Positions 12,219 through 60,158 of a stretch of 64,000 bases of DNA are shown here, one piece after another; position 1 is the first letter of the stretch, and each line of letters opens with the position of its first letter. The translations under genes were made by a program, and so were the position numbers. Below the pieces are notes generated by a model. That model made no database searches, was not told the DNA's origin, and saw nothing but the letters and a program-made list of their open reading frames with translations. This DNA is from Escherichia coli (GTDB lineage: Bacteria > Pseudomonadota > Gammaproteobacteria > Enterobacterales > Enterobacteriaceae): NCBI RefSeq assembly GCF_030384885.1, contig NZ_CP128613.1. One strand, written 5' to 3'.

Positions 12219-12338
12219 GGATGTCGGTGCGGCTGGCCTACGCTCTCGCACTGACCTTCAGGCTTGATAAGACGCGTTAAGCGTCGCATCAGGCAATGTG
12301 CACCCTACGTTGGATGCGGCGCGAGCGCCTTATCCAAC
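12219..12338. repeat. REP/BIME palindromic units directly abutting the stop codon of the GH127 gene
   Basis: ggcttgataagacgcgttaagcgtcgcatcaggc and ggatgcggcgcgagcgccttatccaacctac REP-type palindromes. Confidence 0.8.
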
Positions 12339-14309
12339 CTACGGATGGCAATGCTTTTCCTCATTCACCCAGATCCGCATTTCGCCTTCACCCCGGTTAG
12401 CCCAGCTAAACCACGGGATAAATGTCAGAGTTTGCGGCTGGCGTTTGGCTGGCGCGCTGTCGTAATGCCACAGCGGTTGCTGCTCTGGATAGCTCTGTTC
12501 ATACCGGTAACCCGGTGCCTGGATTAAGATCTTATGGCTGAACAATCCCTTACCTTCAAATGTCGTAAATGGCGCATCGGTGGGCAGCCACAGATTATGC
12601 AGTGACTCGCCGTTGTCGGCCTGTTCCAGGCAATACACCAGCGGGCCGCGCTGAATCGCCACTTTTCCGGCGACGTGACGCACCAGCGGGTTACCGTAAA
12701 CGCGACGTACCGGCATTGGCAACGTCAGATTCAGCGTGTCGCCCTCCTGCCATTCGCGGGTAATGTGCAAATACCCTTTACGAATATCCTGCTCGACCTC
12801 TTCCCCATTCAATGTAATCTGCGGCTGTGTGCACCAGTCCGGCAGACGTAAAGCCAGCGTATGACGCACCGGCTGGGGCGATTCAACCGCAATTGTCACC
12901 TGTTCCTGCCACGGATAGTTTCCGCTAACCCGCAGACGCAGCGTGCCATTTTCTACCGGCACTTCCATGCTGTTTCCTGCGTAGATGTTGATATACAACG
13001 CATCTTCACGCGGCGTGTAGAGATAATGACCAATCGAGGTTAGCACGCGGGCGATATTTGGCGGACAACAAGCGCAACCAAACCAACGCTGGCGGATCGG
13101 CTTAACGTGATCGTAGATATGGTTGAATTTCAGCGATTTTGGATGTACTTCCAGCGGATTCACATAGAAGAAATGTTTGCCATCCAGCGCCATGCCGCCG
13201 AGCACGGTGTTGTACAGTGCGCGCTCCATCACATCGGCATAGTGACTGTCGCCTTCCATTTCCAGCATTCGCCGGGCGAACATCATCAGGCCGATGGAAG
13301 CACAGCTTTCGGCGTATACCGTGTCATTCGGCAGATCGTAATCGCTGCTGAACGCTTCGCCGCTGCTTTGTGAGCCAATGCCGCCGGTAATATATAACTG
13401 ACGCTGGGCCATATTGTTCCACAGCCGCAGGCAGTCCTGACGCTTGCTTTCATCGTGACTTAAACGCGCGAGATGCGCGACGCCGGTCATCAGGTAGACA
13501 AAACGTACCGCGTGACCAATGGCGGTTTGCTGCTGTGCGATGGGCAAATGTGCCTGGCTGTAGGCTTTGTCTTTCACCATCCACGCCGGGCCGTAGGTGT
13601 GCCAGTGCGAGGTCTGTCCGCGCTTTTCATATTCCTGGTCGTAATAGTGCGGTTGCGCACCACGCTGTTCGACAAAATAGTTCGTCAGCGCCAGGTAGCG
13701 CGGCTCTTCGGTCACTTCATACAGGCGCATTAGTGCCAGTTCAATTTCCGGGTGACCAGGATAACCGTGTAACTTACTTTCACCTGGACCAAATACGCTG
13801 TCGATATGATCGGCCAGACGGCAAACCACTTCCAGCAAGCGCCGCTTGCCCGTGGCCTGGAAGAAGGCGACTCCGGCTTCAATCAGATGACCGGCGCAGT
13901 AAAGTTCATGACACTCCGCCAGATTGCTCCAGCGTTCTTCGGGCGCTTTTACCGTAAAGTAAGTATTGAGATAGCCATCTTCGCACTGGGCGGAAGCGAC
14001 CAGTTCGATTACCTCGTCAGCAGTTTTTTCCAGTTCGGCATCCGGCTTCTGGCACAGCGACCAGGCTACCGCTTCCAGCCATTTGGCGACGTCGCTGTCC
14101 TGAAACACCATCCCGTAAAATTCACCGTCTTGCAGTCCTGCGGCAATGCGAAAGTTTTCAATCGCATGGCTGGGTTCCGCTTCTGGGATACGATCGTTCA
14201 AGGCATCCCACTGATAAGGAATCACCACGTCGCGGACCAGTTGTTGGTACTGACCGAGGAACGGATCGCTGACCGTCAGTTTATGCAGATCGACTTCCGA
14301 AATGTTCAT
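12339..14309 (-). CDS. Glycoside hydrolase family 127 (DUF1680; beta-L-arabinofuranosidase-like)
   Basis: Start chosen at ATG 14309 (MNISEVDL) with AAGGAG RBS, about 656 aa; contains E-S-C (codons near 13298-13310) and C-A-C-C (near 13065-13076) matching the Zn/Cys catalytic motifs of GH127; 10 bp after the transporter stop. Confidence 0.8.
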   Translation of the reverse strand: MNISEVDLHKLTVSDPFLGQYQQLVRDVVIPYQWDALNDRIPEAEPSHAIENFRIAAGLQDGEFYGMVFQDSDVAKWLEAVAWSLCQKPDAELEKTADEVIELVASAQCEDGYLNTYFTVKAPEERWSNLAECHELYCAGHLIEAGVAFFQATGKRRLLEVVCRLADHIDSVFGPGESKLHGYPGHPEIELALMRLYEVTEEPRYLALTNYFVEQRGAQPHYYDQEYEKRGQTSHWHTYGPAWMVKDKAYSQAHLPIAQQQTAIGHAVRFVYLMTGVAHLARLSHDESKRQDCLRLWNNMAQRQLYITGGIGSQSSGEAFSSDYDLPNDTVYAESCASIGLMMFARRMLEMEGDSHYADVMERALYNTVLGGMALDGKHFFYVNPLEVHPKSLKFNHIYDHVKPIRQRWFGCACCPPNIARVLTSIGHYLYTPREDALYINIYAGNSMEVPVENGTLRLRVSGNYPWQEQVTIAVESPQPVRHTLALRLPDWCTQPQITLNGEEVEQDIRKGYLHITREWQEGDTLNLTLPMPVRRVYGNPLVRHVAGKVAIQRGPLVYCLEQADNGESLHNLWLPTDAPFTTFEGKGLFSHKILIQAPGYRYEQSYPEQQPLWHYDSAPAKRQPQTLTFIPWFSWANRGEGEMRIWVNEEKHCHP

Positions 14310-26512: not shown

Positions 26513-26613
26513 TGCCGGATGCGGCTTAAACGCCTTATCCGGCCTACAAATTCTTCCAAATTCAATATATTGCAGAAATGATGTAGGCCTGATAAGCGTA
26601 GCGCATCAGGCAA
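26513..26613. repeat. REP/BIME palindromic units
   Basis: gccggatgcggcttaaacgccttatccggcctac and gtaggcctgataagcgtagcgcatcaggc. Confidence 0.85.
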
Positions 26614-45203: not shown

Positions 45204-45419
45204 GCTAAATAATAGAGCAACCTTTAATAATCTTCTGATGAATAAAGATTGTCTCATATATTAATTTTATGAGATTTTTTTAGGATTATATCAAGGAGAA
45301 GAAAAGAACTTATTAAGCTAGAATAGCTGCGGGTGCTTGAGACTGTTTGTCTCAGGTATTCACCGAAAGGCAGACAGAGAAAAGCCCCACCTGACTATAA
45401 ATCAAAGTGAGGCTACCCT

Positions 45420-45632
45420 ATGCCTGAACACCATAAGGTTAGCCTCTTACTCGTTAGAAATCAACACAGGAGGCTGGGAATGCCGCAGAAATATAGATTA
45501 CTTTCTTTAATAGTGATTTGTTGCACGCTTTTATTTTTCACCTGGATGATAAGAGATTCACTGTGTGAATTGCATATTAAACAGGGGAGTTATGAGCTGG
45601 CGGCATTTTTAGCCTGCAATTTGAAAGAGTAA
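45420..45632 (+). CDS. hokA: Hok-family type I toxin locus: mokA reading frame (45420-45632) with nested hokA toxin ORF (45480-45632, 50 aa)
   Basis: MPQKYRLLSLIVICCTLLFFTWMIRDSLCELHIKQGSYELAAFLACNLKE is a Hok-family small TM toxin; AGGAGG RBS before the hok ATG; overlapping upstream mok frame. Confidence 0.8.
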   Translation: MPEHHKVSLLLVRNQHRRLGMPQKYRLLSLIVICCTLLFFTWMIRDSLCELHIKQGSYELAAFLACNLKE

Positions 45633-45820
45633 GAGTCTTCGGCGGGAAGTTATTCCCGCCTTTCTTACGGCGTTGCGCATTCTCATTGCACCCAAATTTA
45701 TTCTTCACAAAAATAATAATAGATTTTATTACGCGAACGATTATTTATTTCCTGAATAAACAAATAAAAAAATCCCCGCCATTTGGCAGGGATCTTAGAT
45801 TCTGTGCTTTTAAGCAGAGA

Positions 45821-46033
45821 TTACAGGCTGGTTACGTTACCAGCTGCCGGGCCTTTAGCGCCGCTTTCGATGGTGAAGGACACTTTCTGACCTTCGTCCA
45901 GAGATTTGTAACCATCGTTCTGGATAGCAGAGAAGTGTACGAACACGTCTTTAGAGCCATCGTCAGGAGTGATGAAGCCGAAGCCTTTGTCAGCGTTGAA
46001 CCATTTTACGATACCAGTCATTTTACCGGACAT
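45821..46033 (-). CDS. cspA: Major cold shock protein CspA
   Basis: 70-aa [24 protein letters not shown], recognised; terminator hairpin at about 45784-45812. Confidence 0.95.
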
Positions 46034-46193
46034 AGTGTATTACCTTTAATAATTAAGTGTGCCTTTCGGCGATATGGCGTGCTTTACAGATTTTGAAGCG
46101 TTAAAGGAATGTGCACTACGAGGGGTATCAACGATAACTCTTGAAGGGACTTGCCTTACTACACTGCTTTAATGGTCTGTACGTCAAACCGTT
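46034..46193 (-). promoter_or_regulatory. cspA long 5' untranslated leader (cold-box region) and promoter
   Basis: About 160 bp upstream of the cspA ATG; the long structured leader is known from the literature; boundaries approximate. Confidence 0.55.
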
Positions 46194-55605: not shown

Positions 55606-57297
55606 ATGAGATACATCAAATCGATTACACAGCAGAAGCTGAGCTTTTTGCTTGCAATCTATATTGGCCTTTTTATGAATGGCGCGGTTTTTTACCGCCG
55701 CTTCGGCAGCTATGCGCACGATTTTACCGTCTGGAAAGGCGTTTCTGCTGTTGTTGAACTGGTCGCTACCGTACTGGTGACCTTCTTTTTACTGCGTCTG
55801 CTTTCGCTGTTTGGCCGCCGCAGCTGGCGAATTCTGGCATCGCTGGTGGTGCTCTTTTCTGCAGGTGCCAGCTATTACATGACTTTCCTTAATGTGGTCA
55901 TTGGTTATGGCATCATCGCATCCGTCATGACCACCGATATCGACCTGTCAAAAGAAGTTGTTGGTCTGAACTTTATTCTCTGGTTAATCGCCGTAAGCGC
56001 ATTGCCTCTTATCCTTATCTGGAATAACCGCTGTCGCTACACCTTGCTCCGACAACTGCGAACCCCAGGGCAACGTATTCGGAGTCTGGCGGTCGTCGTA
56101 CTGGCAGGTATTATGGTTTGGGCACCGATTCGTTTGCTGGATATCCAGCAGAAGAAAGTGGAGAGGGCGACAGGTGTTGATTTGCCGAGTTATGGTGGCG
56201 TTGTCGCGAACTCTTATCTGCCATCAAACTGGCTTTCGGCGTTAGGTCTTTATGCCTGGGCGCGGGTCGATGAATCTTCCGATAACAATTCTCTCCTTAA
56301 CCCTGCGAAGAAGTTTACGTACCAGGCTCCACAAAACGTTGATGATACATATGTCGTTTTCATTATTGGTGAAACCACGCGCTGGGATCATATGGGCATT
56401 TTCGGCTATGAACGCAATACCACACCGAAACTGGCTCAGGAGAAAAATCTGGCGGCGTTTCGTGGCTATTCTTGTGACACGGCGACCAAACTTTCTCTGC
56501 GTTGCATGTTTGTGCGTCAGGGTGGAGCAGAAGATAATCCGCAGCGCACATTAAAAGAACAGAACATTTTCGCGGTATTGAAGCAGTTAGGATTCAGTTC
56601 TGATCTCTACGCTATGCAAAGCGAAATGTGGTTCTACAGCAATACGATGGCGGACAATATTGCTTATCGTGAGCAGATTGGTGCGGAACCGCGTAACCGC
56701 GGCAAGCCGGTAGATGATATGTTGCTGGTAGACGAAATGCAGCAATCGCTGGGGCGTAACCCGGATGGTAAGCATCTGATCATTCTGCATACCAAGGGGT
56801 CGCACTTTAACTACACCCAGCGTTACCCGCGCAGCTTTGCGCAGTGGAAGCCAGAATGTATTGGTGTTGATAGCGGCTGTACCAAAGCGCAGATGATCAA
56901 CTCCTACGACAACTCGGTGACCTATGTGGATCACTTTATTTCCAGCGTGATTGATCAGGTTCGCGATAAGAAAGCGATTGTGTTCTACGCAGCTGACCAC
57001 GGTGAGTCAATTAATGAACGCGAGCACCTGCACGGCACACCGCGTGAACTGGCACCGCCGGAGCAGTTCCGCGTACCGATGATGGTCTGGATGTCGGATA
57101 AATATCTGGAAAATCCAGCCAACGCGCAGGCATTTGCGCAGCTGAAAAAAGAAGCCGACATGAAAGTGCCACGCCGTCACGTAGAGCTGTACGACACCAT
57201 CATGGGTTGTCTTGGCTATACTTCACCGGACGGTGGTATTAACGAAAACAACAACTGGTGCCACATCCCGCAGGCAAAAGAGGCAGCGGCTAACTAA
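55606..57297 (+). CDS. eptB: Kdo(2)-lipid A phosphoethanolamine transferase
   Basis: Start at ATG 55606 ([10 protein letters not shown]) giving 563 aa; N-terminal TM domain plus sulfatase-like domain. Confidence 0.9.
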
Positions 57298-57388
57298 GAA
57301 GCCTGCTGACTTTCTCGCCGATCAAAAGGCATTTTGCTATTAAGGGATTGACGAGGGCGTATCTGCGCAGTAAGATGCGCCCCGCATT

Positions 57389-57465
<77 letters not shown>

Positions 57466-57471
57466 AATTCG

Positions 57472-57500
57472 AAAAGCCTGCTCAGCGAGCAGGCTTTTTT
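57472..57500 (+). terminator. Rho-independent terminator of proK
   Basis: aaaagcctgctcagcgagcaggctttttt. Confidence 0.8.
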
Positions 57501-57515
57501 GCATTTGAAGCCCAT

Positions 57516-57787
57516 GAGGATGAGAACCTCCGGGGGCGGGGAGGTTCGACTCGAGCGAAGCGAGAGAACGTTGCGCCAGCAACGGCCCGCAGGGCGAGCC
57601 ACGAAGTGGCGAGTAATCCTCTATCACCGACCAATTTAGAAAAACCAGCCTACGGGCTGGTTTTTTGCTTTCTGCGACCTGAAGAGGATAAGAACCTCCG
57701 GGGGCAGGGAGGTTCGACTCGAGCAAAGCGAGAGAACGTTGTGGCAGCAACGGCCCGCAGTGGCGAGTAATCCTCTGGCACCGACCA
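57516..57787 (+). repeat. Two tandem degenerate repeat units (57516-57633 and 57681-57787), each ending in a tRNA-Pro 3'-end-like sequence, separated by a terminator-like hairpin (57640-57668)
   Basis: Units share gagaacctccggggg(c/a)ggggaggttcgactcgagc...gcgagagaacgttg...cagcaacggcccgcag...tggcgagtaatcctct(a/g)(t/g)caccgacca; final 19 nt resemble the proK 3' end. Confidence 0.7.
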
Positions 57788-58414
57788 AAACGGCCCCGCA
57801 TTCATTGTCGGATACAGCGTACCTGTCTTATCCGATCTAAACGGCAACACACCACATATTTCCCTGCCAAATTTGCGCCCCACATCTCACTATCCATTAA
57901 CGGATTTGTGACAGAATCCATTGTCTTTTTTTATATTTGCTTAAATCTTTTTTTGCGTTACTTATGGCTGGCGCTGGCATTTTCCGCTGTGCGTTTTAGC
58001 GTTCATGGTATTAATCGCTCAGATATCCATCTTTTCCTCAGATTTTTTTCATTAAATGCATAAAACTTAATCACCAAATGTTGCTAAATATTAAGCTGAT
58101 TGTTCTGGTTATGTTGGCGTAGCACAAATTTCTCTGCTGCAAATAGCTGTTTGAAGTTTTTTTAATCTTTGTTTGTGGATTCTCACCGTTGGTGTAAATC
58201 CCGGTTGGCTGTATTGACGTTTTCACATTCTGTTGACAGATTGTAGGTCACGAGGGGCATTTTATGGAGGATCCGCACTGTTACACTGATGTTAATTAGT
58301 ACGGCATCCCCACCTCATAACGTTGACCCGACCGGGTAAAAAACAAAAAAGGTCAGGCAGCGACAACCCACTGCAAAGGGTTAAAACAACAAACATCACA
58401 ATTGGAGCAGAATA

Positions 58415-60057: not shown

Positions 60058-60158
<101 letters not shown>

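Follow-up and report, generated by a model that had tools for sequence, protein, structure and literature searches.

What lies downstream of proK, the gene for tRNA-Pro(CGG), in the Escherichia coli DNA examined here is very probably a two-copy tandem array of a known element, the RtT RNA or tRNA-linked repeat (TLR). The element was found in a stretch of 64,000 nucleotides (hereafter the window). The repeat as such is already known from Rfam, from NCBI annotation and from the 1999 catalogue of Rudd as used in a later study (PMC8144298), and the finding itself means little because the NCBI pipeline labels the element automatically. What is added here is a correction of the structure of the second unit, a series of E. 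coli alleles and the wide reach of the rule by which each copy ends in its own gene's 3′ end. An inverted-repeat anatomy and an extra covarying hairpin are added as well, although these may already be contained in Rudd's catalogue. The RtT/TLR family is conserved across Enterobacterales and beyond, with compensatory changes, and its units always copy the 3′ end of whichever stable-RNA gene they adjoin.

Organization of the proK locus

The proK gene occupies positions 57389-57465 of the + strand, as judged by ARAGORN, by the Rfam tRNA model (60.7 bits) and by the RefSeq annotation of an identical locus. A promoter-like site composed of TTGACG, a 17-nt spacer and TAAGAT (57348-57376, + strand) ends 12 nt upstream of the tRNA; this candidate comes from a consensus scan only, in which it matched 9 of 12 positions. 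The region is 100% identical to that of E. coli strain 2017-02-2CC, for which RefSeq gives the gene order eptB, tRNA-Pro, RtT sRNA, RtT sRNA, dppA. The genes eptB and dppA are annotated beside proK at eight of eight E. coli proK loci that we compared, two of the stretches ending short of dppA.

Two modules follow downstream of proK. Each opens with an intrinsic terminator, continues with about 100 nt of structured body and closes with a copy of the 19 nt that end tRNA-Pro. Tandem Repeats Finder reports a period of 168 with 1.9 copies (57447-57767), and the two modules are 87% identical. The 19-mer AATCCTCTATCACCGACCA forms the end of the tRNA gene itself (repeat copy 0, 57447-57465) and recurs exactly at 57615-57633 (copy 1) and with two mismatches at 57769-57787 (copy 2). 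The match to the proK 3′ end is thus 19 of 19 positions in the first unit (unit A) and 17 of 19 in the second (unit B), compared with a chance expectation of 0; 100 dinucleotide-preserving shuffles of the window yielded no match to the 19-mer. Copy 1 follows the structured body of unit A (57516-57614), and copy 2 follows a body that begins near 57684. A hairpin formed by GAACCTCC and GGAGGTTC, together with the T-arm-like segment GGAGGTTCGA, is found in units A and B alike.

Each unit is preceded by a predicted intrinsic terminator on the + strand. The terminator of proK, T1 (57471-57500), has a 13-bp stem, the loop AGC and a U run, with a computed fold of -19.6 kcal/mol for 57471-57499 (z -6.07). 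The second, T2 (57639-57667), folds at -18.5 kcal/mol over 57639-57666 (z -6.02) and is also followed by a U run. The two can be aligned, and T2 remains a strong hairpin whose stem sequence has diverged but whose architecture is kept. A simple consensus scan for terminators reported none between 57200 and 58400, which we treat as a false negative because folding predicts two strong hairpins in this interval. No third terminator was predicted after unit B in the fold of 57788-57850. The window array is unusual in this respect, as a REP-like palindrome (57807-57836) is found there instead, directly past the array; it appears as a hairpin in the same fold but is not significant relative to shuffled sequences. 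The initial annotation had described tandem tRNA-3′-like units with interleaved terminators after proK, and every feature that it described is present where it was placed.

Both units belong to the RtT/TLR family

A scan of the whole window with Rfam assigns both units to the RtT RNA family (RF00391, gathering score 45 bits), with each spanning model positions 1-130. Unit A (57500-57633, + strand) scores 100.4 bits and is a canonical full unit, annotated by RefSeq as an RtT sRNA at the same position. Unit B (57667-57787, + strand) is degraded and scores 69.3 bits; its assignment is also supported by RefSeq and by alignments. At the identical locus, two RefSeq ‘RtT sRNA’ genes lie between eptB and dppA.

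[quoted passage not shown] According to that article, the repeat came to light at tyrT in 1978, Rudd's catalogue followed in 1999, and an early claim that the tyrT RNA acts in the stringent response was withdrawn in a 1994 retraction (via PMC8144298). The units described here lie directly downstream of a stable-RNA gene on the same strand, beginning 35 nt and 202 nt past proK. Furthermore, their core aligns with that of the tyrT, serX, arg, lysV and lysT units of K-12 and of units sampled in more than 20 genera. The K-12 copy at proK is termed rpK and is represented by a 168-bp deletion at 3706471-3706638 (PMC8144298, supplementary strain table). That length corresponds to exactly one array period, and proK is located at 3708616-3708692 in the current K-12 record. 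With the offset between versions of the K-12 coordinates taken into account, the rpK interval appears to adjoin proK directly.

A transcribed small-RNA or repeat family had been one of the two origins initially offered for these units, and it proves to be the right one as regards family identity (Rfam RF00391, RefSeq, PMC8144298). It had also been considered that the units might be an already catalogued repeat of known origin. The cataloguing is borne out by the same three sources; the known origin is not.

Unit B has lost 14 nucleotides

Alignment with unit A and with all full-length relatives shows that unit B is missing 14 nt, GGCGAGCCACGAAG, between positions 57760 and 57761. The deletion takes one strand from each of two hairpins, the 3′ strand in the case of CCC/GGG and the 5′ strand in that of the final hairpin. 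Unit A carries the canonical family sequence with no duplication. The length difference had previously been attributed to an extra duplication of roughly 11 bp in unit A, but alignment with full-length relatives reveals that it is really a 14-nt loss in unit B. Given this deletion with its two lost hairpins, the two mismatches that repeat copy 2 carries and the lack of a terminator behind it, unit B is most likely a copy in decay.

Variation in unit number within E. coli

The proK region was matched in 5422 of 5426 complete E. coli genomes. In contrast, at least 80% of the two-unit arrangement is covered in only 292 of the 5426, and a proK-type body is covered to at least 80% in 2678. About half of the genomes therefore lack a full proK unit, which makes the unit dispensable.

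Four alleles illustrate this variation. The window carries units A and B, whereas strain 47538 has a single unit that combines an A-type body with a B-type terminal repeat. In K-12, a single full unit is followed by a second, identical terminator and by a 5′ half-unit that a REP sequence truncates, and in strains Ec1120 and KOr019 only the REP-truncated half-unit is present. In K-12-type alleles, the REP element sits at the position homologous to the palindrome of the window and takes the place of the last unit's 3′ half; Escherichia albertii seemingly shares this arrangement. The number of full units at proK thus ranges from none to two. Such a series fits the outcome expected from unequal exchange or slippage, and we infer that the direct repeats (154-168 bp) let the arrays grow and shrink, either by recombining unequally or through slippage during replication. 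The two-unit allele, existing beside strains with zero or one unit, would be a handy natural variant with which to test processing and read-through.

Each unit ends in the 3′ end of its own stable-RNA gene

In K-12, we searched downstream of each gene for the 17-nt sequence that ends in the CCA of its tRNA. The own-3′-end rule holds at tyrT, serX, argQZYV, lysV, lysT and proK. The tyrT-tyrV locus has two tRNAs and four units, serX has one tRNA and three units spaced at 181 bp, and the arg operon has four tRNAs and three units. Scores on RF00391 vary among these copies: the lysT unit reaches 54.4 bits, the lysV unit and two serX units are barely over the threshold, and the third serX unit and one arg unit fall under it.

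To follow the family further, the core pattern CGTTG..CAACGRCCCGNAGKG was scanned in one genome per species, which gave at least 120 loci as a sample rather than a census. Among the matches listed, most are from Enterobacterales, including Citrobacter, Enterobacter, Klebsiella, Pantoea, Erwinia, Serratia, Rahnella, Pectobacterium, Yersinia, Hafnia and Tatumella, and Gilliamella and Marinobacterium are represented too. Units of Marinobacterium, the best of which reaches 100.7 bits on RF00391, lie behind tRNA-Arg(CCG) with no evident terminator. Some pattern matches, for example in Stenotrophomonas, Streptomyces and several metagenome bins, are either not RtT by Rfam or chance-like.

Among the matches listed, 112 core matches have an upstream tRNA on the same strand, and 100 of these show at most two mismatches to the last 17 nt of that tRNA. 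When tRNAs for other amino acids were compared instead, none of 1189 comparisons gave fewer than four mismatches (again among the matches listed). The core matches listed that have no tRNA are mostly cut by contig ends or are units linked to 5S rRNA that end in ...AACTGCCAGGCAT. The core of about 70 nt follows tRNAs for Tyr, Lys, Arg and Ser, two tRNA-Pro species and 5S rRNA, and each such copy ends in the 3′ end of the local gene. This answers the question of whether the unit recurs beyond proK, as raised in the initial annotation: it does so behind at least six tRNA species and 5S rRNA.

Loci of tRNA-Pro(CGG) and tRNA-Pro(UGG), sampled from genera of Enterobacterales and from Gilliamella, form a subtype. 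Among the matches listed, 19 of 20 such loci have at least one delimited unit. Arrays at the 20 loci contain one to three units, every delimited unit opens with a terminator, and most arrays close with one more terminator copy. The Pro-linked subtype has thus kept its interleaved terminators across genera, whereas the units at tyrT, arg and lysT have no terminator inside the unit.

Anatomy and predicted fold of RtT units

The plan of the unit is constant across loci and can be divided into five parts. The first, at the 5′ end, corresponds in reverse complement to the local T arm together with 3-7 nt of the acceptor 3′ strand, with the loop changed from ATTCGAA to ATGAGAA. A short loop forms the second part, and the third is the 5′ strand of the T stem in forward orientation followed by TTCGA. 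The fourth part is the core of about 70 nt that is common to the loci and contains the hairpins CTCG/CGAG, CGTTGC/GCAACG, CCC-GNA-GGG and GCCAC-GNA-GTGGC. The fifth, at the 3′ end, is nt 58-76 of the tRNA in forward orientation. Alignment of the first part with the local tRNA yields scores of 26-36, compared with means of 11.5-13 for shuffled sequences; the real score exceeds every shuffle for the Tyr unit, unit B of the window and Marinobacterium, but not for unit A of the window or lysV.

Unit A is predicted to fold into a multi-hairpin junction that is closed by GAGGAU/AUCCUC and in which every family helix is present. Structure prediction, a check proposed at the outset, thus gives the complete set of helices for unit A; by alignment, unit B lacks two of the hairpins. 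In a MAFFT alignment of 25 sequences, 93.6% of the cells are paired under the structure drawn from unit A, compared with 37-49% when partners are slid, a percentage that is somewhat favoured by taking the structure from a sequence that is itself in the alignment. Nine pairs are changed on both sides, compared with 2.9 in shuffles, a control that ignores phylogeny. The 3′ hairpin, which is unpaired in the Rfam consensus, shows compensatory changes at four of its five pairs. RNAalifold did not predict this hairpin, which was added by hand from unit A and tested by pair counts. Cells with G-U and with A-C in the proposed helices number 19 and 20, respectively, counts that favour neither strand as the one that folds. 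Taken as a model, the predicted RtT fold is conserved across genera with compensatory changes.

A putative route of transcription and processing

The primary transcript of proK in K-12 is about 113 nt long and ends at T1, and RNase E cleaves it between GACCA and AAUUCG (PMC5291269). TLRs linked to 5S rRNA are transcribed via read-through of T1. Their 5′ end coincides with the RNase E site that follows 5S rRNA; the 3′ end is located 3 nt past the repeated 18-mer, a position that the authors ascribe to recognition of the repeat by RNase E (PMC8144298). Discrete RNAs are known for rttR and for RrA, RrB and RrF (literature including PMC8144298).

The end of unit A reads GACCA AUUUAG and is AU-rich after the repeat. 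By analogy with proK and with the 5S-linked TLRs, a similar scheme can be proposed for the proK unit. RNA polymerase would occasionally read through T1 and thereby transcribe unit A, whose RNA would fold into the multi-hairpin junction with its 5′ segment paired to the tRNA-like 3′ segment. RNase E could then cut after the repeated GACCA and before AUUUAG, as it does at proK and as has been proposed for the 5S-linked RrB, and T2 would halt the polymerase. Read-through of T1 may be rare because the detected K-12 proK primary transcript ends at that terminator.

Terminators, structured body and possible function

In the TLR study, no function is reported for any tRNA-linked TLR (PMC8144298). Perhaps only the repeated terminators function, shielding dppA from the strong tRNA promoter, while the RtT body is a neutral or selfish hitch-hiker. 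The regular placement of terminators at the start of each Pro-linked module and at the end of most arrays is consistent with this possibility, as is the absence of a full unit from many E. coli genomes. The T1-TLR-T2 arrangement of rrn operons is likewise a well-known dual terminator, and the supplementary strain table of the same study lists a presumably viable strain with all 22 TLRs deleted (PMC8144298). The text searched gives no phenotype for this strain, and no phenotype is known from it for TLR deletions. However, a role for terminators alone fits poorly with the conservation of the body across genera as far as Marinobacterium, with compensatory changes in several helices, and with the way in which the 5′ segment of the body tracks the local tRNA sequence. 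Nor does it suit the TLRs of tyrT, arg and lysT, in which an internal terminator is lacking, or the array of the window, in which no terminator follows unit B. We therefore regard an insulating function of this kind as possible but unlikely.

The RtT body may, on the other hand, be an RNA whose structure is under selection and adapted to each locus. Its 5′ segment matches, in reverse complement, the T arm and the start of the acceptor 3′ strand of the local tRNA, and its 3′ end repeats the last 19 nt of that tRNA, so that it would present a tRNA-like 3′ end on a foreign scaffold. It could act in cis on tRNA 3′ maturation or on read-through, or as a decoy for RNase E, CCA-repair enzymes, toxins or phage factors. 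This proposal is speculative and, in our estimation, quite unlikely to be correct. If true, it would supply these repeats with the function that they have lacked since 1978.

Other explanations for the repeats

The T-arm-like segments and the exact tRNA 3′ end in the units could suggest that they are decayed tandem duplicates of proK, and the arg operon does have TLRs and tRNA genes in alternation, with comparable intervals of 133-141 nt. In the whole window, however, ARAGORN finds no second tRNA and the Rfam tRNA model matches 57389-57462 only, so that both call the true tRNA alone. The units are devoid of a D arm, an anticodon arm and an acceptor 5′ strand. Moreover, they share a non-tRNA core with loci for different amino acids, which independent decay would not produce, making descent from proK by duplication very unlikely.

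The 3′ ends of tRNA genes are classical integration sites, and integration duplicates the 3′ segment of the tRNA. The 19-nt direct repeats resemble att cores, and the initial annotation had put forward, as one possibility, that the units are scars left at the proK 3′ end by recurrent site-specific integration and excision. This explanation can be set aside as highly improbable. The interval is the ordinary one from eptB through proK to dppA that nearly all E. coli genomes match, and apart from these genes and the RtT units nothing is annotated there, neither an integrase nor an island. A single integrase cannot yield a common core with local 3′ ends behind Tyr, Lys, Arg, Ser and two Pro tRNAs and 5S rRNA, and the period of the array is regular and includes a terminator. 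In the phage and plasmid collections, no genuine phage or plasmid carrying an RtT unit was found: the matches there are fragments or chromosomal records filed in error, and the 39 records from the plasmid collection are all typed as non-mobilizable.

Finally, that the units encode small basic peptides, as might be suggested by a 46-codon arginine-rich ORF with a TTG start that spans unit A (57499-57639) and by the annotation of tpr, a ‘protamine-like protein’, within the rttR repeat at tyrT in K-12, is extremely unlikely and was rejected, given that RefSeq has no coding sequence at the locus, most frames of this GC-rich repeat contain ORFs, the 14-nt deletion of unit B is a frameshift, and substitutions preserve base pairs as in RNA pairing and not codons.

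Comparison with known systems

The RtT array of the window is most directly compared with rpK of K-12, with which it shares its locus, its family and its 168-bp period, unit A differing at few positions. K-12 has one full unit with an identical terminator and a REP-cut 5′ half-unit, whereas the window has two full-length units, the second with the 14-nt deletion and neither disrupted by REP.

The rttR element of tyrT-tyrV (RF00391), described as a 178-bp repeat by Egan and Landy in 1978 according to a later account (PMC8144298), has its core and closing helix in common with the proK units. Like them, rttR units end in the last 19 nt of the local tRNA and form tandem arrays. They differ in carrying the 3′ end of tRNA-Tyr, in having no internal terminator and in placing one unit between two tRNA genes. 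Bosl and Kersten reportedly worked on the RtT RNA, or rttR, of the tyrT-tyrV operon in 1991. The rttR RNA has been detected experimentally, whereas the proK units are known here from sequence.

RrA, RrB and RrF lie between T1 and T2 of rrnA, rrnB and rrnD, a layout that corresponds to that at proK: a stable-RNA gene, a terminator, a TLR with an 18-nt copy of the gene's 3′ end and a second terminator (PMC8144298). In other species, 5S-linked units share the core CGTTG..CAACGGCCCG with the proK units. Unlike the latter, RrA, RrB and RrF carry the 3′ end of 5S rRNA and GGA motifs and bind Hfq and CsrA in vitro, and tRNA-linked TLRs score below 0.01 in a predictor of CsrA binding (PMC8144298).

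A functional analogy, offered as a possibility only and not as a claim of sequence relationship, may exist with 3′ETS-leuZ, an sRNA sponge that RNase E releases from the 3′ external transcribed spacer of glyW-cysT-leuZ (PMC8144298). In contrast to the proK units, 3′ETS-leuZ precedes its terminator, is not repeated and has no copy of a tRNA 3′ end. The attL/attR remnants at tRNA genes resemble the proK units in being direct repeats of the 3′ part of the tRNA. They differ in that the proK units have no such element between the repeats and no integrase, and share their core with units at many stable-RNA genes.

Architecture of RtT units

Every long RtT unit opens with a 5′ segment that is the reverse complement of the T arm and first acceptor 3′-strand nucleotides of the local tRNA. 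Sequence comparison places these segments at 57516-57555 and 57684-57723 in the window, and also in four loci from other records (L005, L010, L012 and L033). The loop of the reverse-complemented T arm now reads ATGAGAA, where it was ATTCGAA. Because of this 5′ match, a long RtT unit can be described as the 3′ third of a tRNA presented as an inverted repeat around a common core. As read from sequence, this layout could have arisen as a palindrome, or the segment could have followed changes in the tRNA by compensation.

Two hairpins of the RtT core (window 57558-57614; columns 46-55, 92-100 and 104-116 of A2, our alignment of RtT units) carry C(GNA)G triloops whose middle base is free to vary among species. 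The variants seen across species in A2 are CCCG[A/C/T]AGGG for the first hairpin and CACG[A/C/G/T]AGTG for the second. A mini-hairpin, GCG[N]AGC (GCGAAGC in unit A), has the same appearance when the alignment is judged by eye. Compensatory changes are most numerous in the 3′ hairpin, though this lies outside the Rfam consensus structure.

Allelic forms and surrounding features

The second unit is undisrupted in the window, unlike in K-12-type alleles, where it breaks off after GGTTCGACTCGA and is followed by a REP sequence (K-12 locus L002 1834-2000 versus window 57634-57840). In MG1655 the REP sequence after this break is an Rfam naRNA4 match of 69 bits (L009 976-1055). The truncated second unit is apparently also present in E. 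albertii, and therefore both the undisrupted and the REP-truncated allele types may be old.

A consensus terminator scan of window 57200-58400 returned zero sites. This interval contains two textbook intrinsic terminators (57471-57500 and 57639-57667), both missed by the scan, and its negatives there are therefore not to be trusted. Elsewhere in the window, the Rfam hits that pass threshold comprise the sok antitoxin RNA (45331-45482, plus strand), the cspA thermoregulator (45766-46193, minus), naRNA4, a REP-derived RNA (12261-12339, minus), and two ES036 elements (26548-26590, plus; 60081-60123, minus), all ordinary content for this E. coli region.

A 150-kb record named 'plasmid pE100181_149' (L007, NZ_JBRERE010000002.1) contains genes of the chromosome, namely tolB-pal-cpoB, nadA-pnuC and the lysT tRNA operon together with the short TLR of that operon. 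The record represents an F-prime-like plasmid or else an artefact of assembly or labelling.

RtT-like units in other genera

In Marinobacterium, a genus outside Enterobacterales, units downstream of tRNA-Arg(CCG) match RtT strongly, with scores reaching 100.7 bits (L033 8770-9071; L069; L115). The terminal repeat is identical to the tRNA 3′ end in L069 and L115 and has diverged from it in L033.

Pectobacterium carries tandem units of ~74 nt (L052 3276-3448; also L051, L092, L093 and L095), in which the RtT hairpin (CGTTGC..GCAACGGCCCG) precedes a second one (TGACGGACAAGGATGTCCGTCA) and a tail that is rich in A and looks like a terminator. None of these five loci has a tRNA upstream of the units, and an Rfam scan, run on L052 alone among them, gave no RtT match at threshold. 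The Pectobacterium units look like 5S-linked TLRs from which the 5S 3′ end has been lost.
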